From: Escherichia coli
Lineage (GTDB): Bacteria; Pseudomonadota; Gammaproteobacteria; Enterobacterales; Enterobacteriaceae
Strand: one strand, 5' to 3'
NCBI RefSeq assembly: GCF_003334785.1
Contig: NZ_QOWV01000087.1
Length of the DNA stretch: 485 bases
The notes beneath the pieces were generated by a model. The model saw only the letters and a program-made list of their open reading frames with translations. It was not told the DNA's origin and made no database searches. The position numbers and the translations under genes are program-made. Every line of letters starts with the position of its first letter. Positions within the stretch are counted from its first letter, which is position 1. Positions 1-485 of the stretch are shown here, one piece after another.

Positions 1-33
1 GTGTTGACGAACTCCTGCCATGGAACGTAGTAC

Positions 34-396
34 TCACCAATAAATAAGCGTCAATACGGTGCTCCGTTGACGCTTACTTTCATTCGCCCGGTAGCATGAA
101 CCATTATCCGTCAGCCACTCCACTGGAGACGCCGGAAGCTCGCTGCCAAAGCGGCGTTCCACTACTCCCAGCATGACGTCCTGTACTGTTTCACTGTCGA
201 AGCCACCCGTTGTGACCGCCCAGTGCAGTGCCTCACGGTCACAGCAGTCCAGCGCGAACGTGACCCGCAGTTTTTCTCCGTTATCACAGCGGAACTCGAA
301 CCCGTCAGAGCACCATCGCTGATTACTTTCTTTCACAGCCACTCTGCCGGTATGTGCCCGTTTCGATGGCGGTACAGCGGGTTTTCGCTCAAGCAA
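34..396 (-). pseudogene. insD: Internal fragment of an IS2-type (IS3 family) transposase OrfB/InsD, integrase-core (rve/DDE) region. Intact as a 120-codon ORF but truncated relative to the full-length transposase of about 300 aa, so most likely a non-functional relic.
   Basis: The translation [105 protein letters not shown] is near-identical, with a handful of substitutions, to the middle of E. coli IS2 InsD as I recall it. It contains the IS3-family motifs W-x-x-D (D codon at 304..306) and D-N-G-S-x-Y (D codon at 106..108). The glutamate of the DDE triad and everything C-terminal to it are absent, and the last 15 residues ([14 protein letters not shown]) are read from unrelated flank. The annotated start is a TTG (394..396) with no Shine-Dalgarno-like sequence upstream, and the frame stays open upstream to the window edge at 485. 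Confidence 0.85.
45..76. other. Perfect 10-bp inverted repeat (TAAGCGTCAA, 12-nt spacer, TTGACGCTTA), a potential stem-loop or palindromic protein-binding site; function unknown
   Basis: Read directly: 45..54 TAAGCGTCAA is the exact reverse complement of 67..76 TTGACGCTTA. Inside the spacer, CGG (57..59) can pair with CCG (64..66), leaving a 4-nt loop TGCT. On the minus strand the stem is followed by TTTATTGG, a modest T-tract, and it overlaps the 3' end of the transposase-fragment ORF (stop at 34..36). Confidence 0.45.
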
Positions 397-409
397 CAGC
401 GCATTCTGG
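77..409 (-). mobile_element. IS2-like insertion sequence remnant: internal segment of orfB only, with no terminal inverted repeats, no orfA and no orfA/orfB frameshift window in this sequence
   Basis: Protein-level resemblance to IS2 InsD begins at the codons for QNALLLER (about 397..409) and ends just after the codons for SCYRANE (about 79..81). DNA outside these limits does not resemble IS2 ends as I recall them and is visibly more AT-rich. Boundaries are approximate, about +/-10 bp. Confidence 0.7.
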
Positions 410-463
410 GTAACCGGCTCATTTAAACCGTCTGGTCTGTTTCCTCCGGCTCTACAAAAATAA

Positions 464-485
464 TGTCCATCATTTTTAATGGACA
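464..485. repeat. 7-bp inverted repeat TGTCCAT / ATGGACA around CATTTTTA, in an AT-rich tract at the window edge
   Basis: Read directly: 464..470 TGTCCAT and 479..485 ATGGACA are reverse complements, separated by 471..478 CATTTTTA. It may continue beyond the window. Confidence 0.4.

Follow-up and report, generated by a model that had tools for sequence, protein, structure and literature searches.

The window, that is, the whole stretch of 485 nt of Escherichia coli DNA that was analyzed, is composed of three nested pieces of mobile elements (Table 1). Two complete E. coli chromosomes contain it in full with 100% identity; from position 59 onward, it is also matched by a plasmid of the first of these strains. 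The annotation of the first genome (locus L001) lists, in this order, a tnpA-like gene, tnpB and tnpC of the 'IS66-like element ISEc47', then a DDE-type pseudogene lacking both termini, and finally the tnpA, tnpB and tnpC genes of the 'IS66-like element ISCro1'. The middle piece is 99.4% identical to IS3-family (IS2-like) copies by megablast, and its boundaries also follow from mapping to two further loci (L002 and L003). With homology to orfB and both termini missing, it is a relic of IS2. The correct annotation of the window is the right end of ISEc47, an IS2 relic and the left end of ISCro1, rather than an IS2 relic next to an unexplained signal. The chimeric open reading frame that crosses the first junction is a by-product and not a gene. 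Its tail and stop codon had been predicted to stem from the non-IS2 side, and indeed the last 14 residues and the stop (36-34) are encoded by positions 77-34.

Table 1. Features of the window, with positions counted from its first nucleotide.
Feature	Position	Strand	Details
3' end of tnpC (DDE transposase, ISEc47)	1-47	+	TAA stop 45-47; RefSeq annotation, L001 CDS 4434-6047
ISEc47 right terminal inverted repeat (IRR)	49-77	+	Inner box CGTCAATACGG 49-59, tip box GACGCTTAC 69-77, last base C77
IS2 relic, 332 bp, mid-orfB	78-409	-	Nt ~296-627 counted from the right end of IS2; pseudogene without both termini in the annotation
Chimeric ORF	34-396	-	IS2 orfB fragment that continues across the junction into the end of ISEc47; incomplete pseudogene in the annotation
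ISCro1-type left end (second IS66-family element)	410-485	+	Left inverted repeat (IRL) starts GTAACCGGCTC at 410; annotated tnpA ATG at 463
Palindrome, left arm	45-54		TAA stop (45-47), GC (48-49) and inner-box start GTCAA (50-54)
Palindrome, loop	55-66		56-59 pair with 64-67 in the predicted fold
Palindrome, right arm	67-76		TT and tip box GACGCTTA (IR positions 11-2)
Second palindrome, TGTCCAT-catttttA-ATGGACA	464-485 (L001 6464-6485)		54 nt inside the ISCro1 IRL; overlaps the tnpA ATG (463-465)

Profile searches agree with this annotation. TnpC scores 450.5 bits against the NCBIfam IS66 transposase model (transpos_IS66, NF033517; cutoff 180), TnpB 119 bits against the IS66 TnpB model (NF033819; cutoff 50) and TnpA of ISCro1 296 bits against the IS66 TnpA model (cutoff 150). 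The first ORF of ISEc47 remains below the cutoff of the IS66 TnpA models (66.8 vs 74). Four Pfam families (PF03050, PF13817, PF13005 and PF13007) are on record for proteins near-identical to TnpC. A TnpC of the IS66 type, preceded by accessory tnpA and tnpB genes, places the element in the IS66 family. The ORF of the relic aligns to profile positions 102-215 of the 301 positions of the NCBIfam IS2 TnpB model with 238 bits, where the cutoff of 597 bits refers to the full-length protein.

At the junction of the first two pieces lies a perfect inverted repeat, in which the arms TAAGCGTCAA and TTGACGCTTA are complementary at 10 out of 10 positions and enclose a loop of 12 nt. Only 5 of 1000 mononucleotide shuffles of the whole window yielded a perfect inverted repeat as long as this one or longer (≥10 bp; loop 3-30 nt). 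The palindrome is real and not a chance product of random sequence with the composition of the window. A repeat finder reports a 13-nt version (42-54 / 67-79), yet this extension is incidental as it enters the IS2 side and contains an A44/C77 mismatch. The predicted fold adds an inner stem of 4 bp, after which a UGCU tetraloop remains. Folding of positions 40-90 on both strands had been proposed as a check, and the 60-nt segment 36-95 indeed folds stably on the plus strand (-17.0 kcal/mol; z = -3.1) as well as on the minus strand (-22.1 kcal/mol; z = -4.0), with zero shuffles folding as well. A direct repeat (61-85 / 310-334; 72%) and other short repeats in the window were treated as chance.

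The original prediction placed the end of the IS2 resemblance at about 77-80, directly next to the palindrome. Both statements are borne out: IS2 homology starts at position 78 by megablast (78-409) and by exact mapping, and the single base C77 separates it from the palindrome. The palindrome touches the IS2 breakpoint because this breakpoint is the outer end of ISEc47 and the right arm is its tip. In sister copies of the element, identical 8-bp target duplications are found directly outside the left GTAAGCG… and the right …CGCTTAC termini, namely AAATATTG in L003, GCAAGGTT in L002 (a copy located within an IS2) and TTATTTAC in L005. Therefore, the element ends at C77. Matching 8-bp duplications occur in nine further relatives, bringing the number of elements that validate the ends to 12, and in the genome of the window itself an 8-bp duplication brackets the whole three-part block. 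Inverted repeats of the IS66 family start with GTAAGCGTCCGG or GTAACCGTCCGG, and its members have three ORFs and 8-bp repeats (PMC12888890, PMC3281130). The IRR (GTAAGCGTCAACGGAGCACCGTATTGAC) and IRL (GTAAGCGTAAAGCCAATGCCGTCTGTAAC) of ISEc47 form such an imperfect terminal repeat, with a GTAAGCG / GTAACCG start. The other boundary of the IS2 piece, at 409/410, is the left end of ISCro1. The palindrome very probably represents the right-hand terminal inverted-repeat region of ISEc47, an IS66-family element whose tnpB-tnpC-IRR part is of the ISEc23 type. As such, it is an ordinary, already known kind of feature, i.e., the terminal repeat of a catalogued insertion sequence (IS) at a nested-IS junction. 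The view of positions 1-77 as an anonymous flank, taken in the original prediction, has to be abandoned: they comprise the 3' end of tnpC and the right inverted repeat and align as a continuous known element, an outcome that had been named beforehand as speaking against a special role of the palindrome. Among the functions proposed for it, a site involved in the truncating rearrangement comes closest, in that the breakpoint is an IS66 end with the right arm as its tip, but the palindrome is not a free-standing signal.

The same block occurs at different places in the two matching chromosomes. In the first genome, it spans 5,572 bp (L001 3537-9108), is bracketed on both sides by GCAAGGTC and is inserted in yceK. 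The reconstructed empty site, with one copy of GCAAGGTC, is 100% identical to yceK along 300 nt. In 5375 genomes, a site covering 80% or more of it is present. The second genome (L205 2590-9608) has the block in yegP, with ATTTGATG on both sides and an extra IS110-family element inside ISEc47. Given that the block is shared between yceK and yegP, each time with a flanking duplication, it has transposed as a unit at least twice. The ends used by the block are the left end of ISEc47 and the right end of ISCro1; the right end of ISEc47, with its palindrome, has become internal and is bypassed. Two ISs with a passenger, one duplication for the whole unit and an empty site that is uninterrupted in other genomes are the hallmarks of a composite transposon, and it is of modest interest that ISEc47, the IS2 relic and ISCro1 together behave as such a mobile compound. 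The IS2 'truncation' at 77/78 is the junction of the ISEc47 end with IS2 DNA, and only 332 bp of IS2 are left because the whole block was later moved as one unit via its outer ends. The relic may stem from simple insertions of ISEc47 and ISCro1 into one intact IS2 or from insertions with accompanying deletions: the reciprocal junctions that would prove the former (IS2…TTTCATTC joined to the IRL of ISEc47, and the IRR of ISCro1 joined to CATTCTGG…IS2) were not found among 5426 complete E. coli genomes, which yielded only two-piece, non-contiguous hits. Separately, two independent IS66-type insertions have near-identical 8-bp targets, i.e., GCAAGGTT in IS2 (L002 1559-1566 and 4078-4085) and GCAAGGTC in yceK (L001 3529-3536 and 9109-9116), and many E. 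coli genomes have IS66-type elements within or next to copies of IS2. This could be a target preference or a coincidence.

Right ends of the family were collected from 80 loci in one-genome-per-species contigs, and a further 120 metagenome loci were retrieved with the pattern CGTCAATACGG-N10-ACGCTTAC. Both ends of the family share a tip box GTAAGCGTC and an inner box CCGT(C/A)T(T/G)GAC at inverted-repeat positions ~19-28, giving the family consensus GTAAGCGTC..CCGTcTTGAC. At either end of family members, the inner box is set back from the tip by ~20 bp, and the two boxes are conserved across ~100 distinct relatives. The right arm of the palindrome corresponds to the opposite strand of the family-invariant tip, GTAAGCGTC(AA), and the left arm is made up of the tnpC stop, a GC dinucleotide and the five bases with which the conserved inner box GTCAATACGG begins. 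If the bipartite ends of other DDE insertion sequences are taken as a guide, TnpC would bind the inner box and would cleave and join at the tip. The two arms may thus be parts of one transposase recognition site, as the inner box is presumably bound and the tip presumably cleaved. Positions 49-77 are best read as the putative site at which the transposase recognizes and cleaves the right end.

Perfect pairing of the two arms was found in six of the 55 distinct right-end variants that share both boxes (metagenome variants). Five of these six belong to the ISEc23/47 lineage and represent three loop sequences in 39 distinct flanks, a number that identifies this lineage as mobile. The sixth, L011, has a TnpC with 55% identity and a fourth loop sequence; its arms are identical, and four of the seven non-box loop positions (60-66) are changed. 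The nearest sister variants (…TAACCGTCAA…TTAACGCTTA) form eight out of ten pairs, with a weak fold on the plus strand (dG of -3.4 to -5.6), and the closest sister clade has C48 and A69, which break two pairs and are uncompensated. Variants with nine out of ten pairs were not seen among the right ends sharing both boxes. Only five out of ten pairs are formed in the two most abundant other relatives, whose 13 and 10 distinct flanks mark them as mobile. Perfect complementarity of the arms would be dispensable for mobility in this family. Across the family, the only pairs of the palindrome register above background are 7-28, 8-27 and 9-26, the invariant GTC/GAC, and no covariation was detected at positions 2-6 and 10-13 in 47 right and 34 left ends. 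The relatives show no compensatory changes of the kind expected for a conserved functional hairpin. The perfect complementarity may be a lineage-specific elaboration of the 3-bp GTC/GAC complementarity that is built into the two boxes.

Folding was also compared between the ends. The terminal 45 nt of the right end of ISEc47 fold well on either strand (z = -6.2 on plus; z = -4.3 on minus), while its left end does not fold (z = -0.4 and -1.1). For the right-end 45-mers of the family, the median z is ~0, and 17% of the 52 distinct ones reach z < -2, versus 4-10% of the left ends. In many relatives with long spacers, the tnpC stop is directly followed by a separate hairpin. Strong right-end hairpins in the last 45 nt (z of -2 to -5.5) were observed in L064, L046, L041, L037, L067, L076 and L045, where they bracket the inner box with arms of unrelated sequence and register. 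A hairpin as a requirement at all IS66 right ends was rejected in view of the median z of ~0 and the abundant mobile relatives without a hairpin.

Other explanations for the palindrome differ widely in plausibility. We attach next to no probability to a deletion that removed the end of IS2 at a fragile or cruciform site in host DNA of unrelated origin. Only the position of the palindrome beside the breakpoint points in this direction, whereas positions 1-77 are contiguous IS66-family sequence up to the canonical tip, and the presence of the same 77-nt end next to dozens of unrelated flanks, together with the 8-bp duplications of the sister copies, refutes it. It is less far-fetched, but still unlikely, that, besides forming part of the inverted repeat, the hairpin has been selected as an RNA element, acting as a putative stop for transcripts that enter from the right flank (minus strand) or as a stable 3' end for tnpC (plus strand). 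The stem is followed by a UUUAUUGGU tail on the minus strand, with a borderline T-tract score of 3.32, and such a role would fit the stable fold of the terminal 45 nt on both strands next to an unfolded left end, the larger share of right ends with z < -2, the hairpins with different arms around the inner box in several unrelated lineages and the separate hairpin after the tnpC stop of long-spacer relatives. However, a consensus scan for rho-independent terminators finds none at 45-77 on either strand, and the plus-strand tail lies outside the element, so it depends on the flank (here IS2 DNA, with a T-tract score of 1.73). Moreover, the family median of z is ~0, and both the sister lineages with two mismatches and abundant hairpin-free mobile relatives persist. 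Neither an Rfam match (E ≤ 1) nor a promoter-like site (consensus scan) was found in the window, and its sole terminator-like site is located at 485-464 on the minus strand, away from the palindrome at 45-76. With a negative scan and a T-tract that is weak on the plus strand and borderline on the minus strand, the intrinsic terminator suggested in the original prediction is unsupported.

In line with the dimeric binding site suggested in the original prediction, one could also consider the palindrome as a putative two-fold symmetric protein-binding site, in which an inverted copy of the tip would accommodate another TnpC or TnpA subunit and regulate the use of the right end. The left arm ATAAGCGTCAA differs from the genuine tip GTAAGCGTCAA in the first base alone, the centres of the arms are 22 bp or about two helical turns apart as read from the sequence, and L011 has identical arms around a different loop. 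Nonetheless, we regard such a site as distinctly improbable, as the non-box arm positions neither covary nor are conserved across the family, C48 and A69 disrupt two pairs in the closest sister clade and the left end has no equivalent. Somewhat short of an even chance is given to the perfection being functionless, i.e., a product of chance, or of template-switch 'quasipalindrome correction' of the partial complementarity of the two boxes, that then hitch-hiked in a successful lineage. In E. coli, such correction is established as a mutational process. A complementarity of 3 bp is inherent to the consensus, relatives often form five to eight of the ten pairs, a perfect palindrome is restricted to L011 and one successful lineage, and relatives lacking it are mobile. 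Less easily reconciled with a lack of function are the retention of perfect arms in L011 despite 55% TnpC identity and the changes in its loop, and the missing intermediates with nine pairs. Seven of the ten pairs need bases that are not set by the boxes, and a perfect match by pure chance is expected at ~4^-7 per lineage. Because of these seven pairs and their retention in L011, selection or templated mutation may have acted on the pairing. That the perfect fold-back of ISEc23/47 is a selected structure, putatively a barrier to inward transcription or a second, inverted transposase site, is nevertheless doubtful. If true, it would represent one case of recurrent hairpin evolution around the inner box with unrelated arms, and a right-end hairpin may indeed have evolved recurrently in unrelated IS66-family lineages.

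As to the palindrome as the right terminal inverted repeat of ISEc47, no description of the perfect self-complementarity of the ISEc23/ISEc47 right end was found in the IS66 literature reviewed, and nothing specific on hairpins was found in the literature on IS66 ends. ISEc47 (L001 3537-6077) and ISEc23 (L003 1544-4075) are 89-100% identical from ~nt 500 to the right end, versus only 37-77% over the IRL and tnpA (both in 100-nt windows). Judged from these alignments, ISEc47 and ISEc23 are mosaics of each other. The IRL of ISEc47 resembles that of L007, a relative from Acerihabitans with 76% TnpC identity. On plasmid pWP7-S17-ESBL-04_2 of the first strain (L004 3930-4030), an IS1203 (IS3 family) is inserted in the loop of the palindrome, between window positions 58 and 59, and the remainder of ISEc47 is inverted beside a second IS1203 copy. 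Elements with passengers downstream of tnpC have been described as tIS66 (PMC12888890). Seven relatives from Pseudomonas and Aromatoleum (L047, L054, L056, L060, L070, L073 and L084) lack an inverted repeat up to 110 nt from the tnpC stop and instead carry a conserved downstream ORF-like sequence (…TCCATGGTTAAAACTGT…) after tnpC, which is consistent with such passenger-carrying elements.

The second palindrome of the window, in the left end of ISCro1, belongs to a recurrent type. A TGTCC(A/G)(C/T)…GGACA palindrome is present in 22 of 52 distinct IS66-family elements, located either 53-78 nt inside the left end or directly after the tnpC stop at the right end. The copy at 464-485 is the one flagged by the terminator scan on the minus strand. 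Its conservation at the sequence level suggests a candidate protein-binding site rather than a terminator. This recurrent palindrome and the two conserved boxes at the ends of the family are of modest interest.

Compared with known systems, the right end of ISEc47 resembles the bipartite ends of other DDE insertion sequences in that, across the family, each end carries a conserved block at the tip and another ~20 bp further in. The functions of these blocks are assigned by analogy, and in ISEc23/47 the blocks and their neighbours are, in addition, complementary. With rho-independent terminators it shares a stable hairpin and, on the minus strand, a U-rich tail, but it differs from them in its 12-nt loop with a bulged inner stem, in its closing A-U pairs and in failing the consensus scan, and ISEc47 itself encodes no U-tract on the plus strand. 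The element itself agrees with the IS66 elements of Enterobacterales (ISEc47, ISEc23 and ISEc8-like elements, and ISCro1 for the second element) in the tnpA-tnpB-tnpC order, a DDE transposase, GTAAGCG inverted repeats and 8-bp duplications. The ISEc23-type copies at many loci have a right end identical to that of the window, and nothing essential differs. Finally, as in compound transposons, two ISs bracket a passenger and move jointly with one 8-bp duplication; here, however, two different members of the IS66 family flank the passenger in direct orientation, and this passenger is a 332-bp fragment of IS2 without function.
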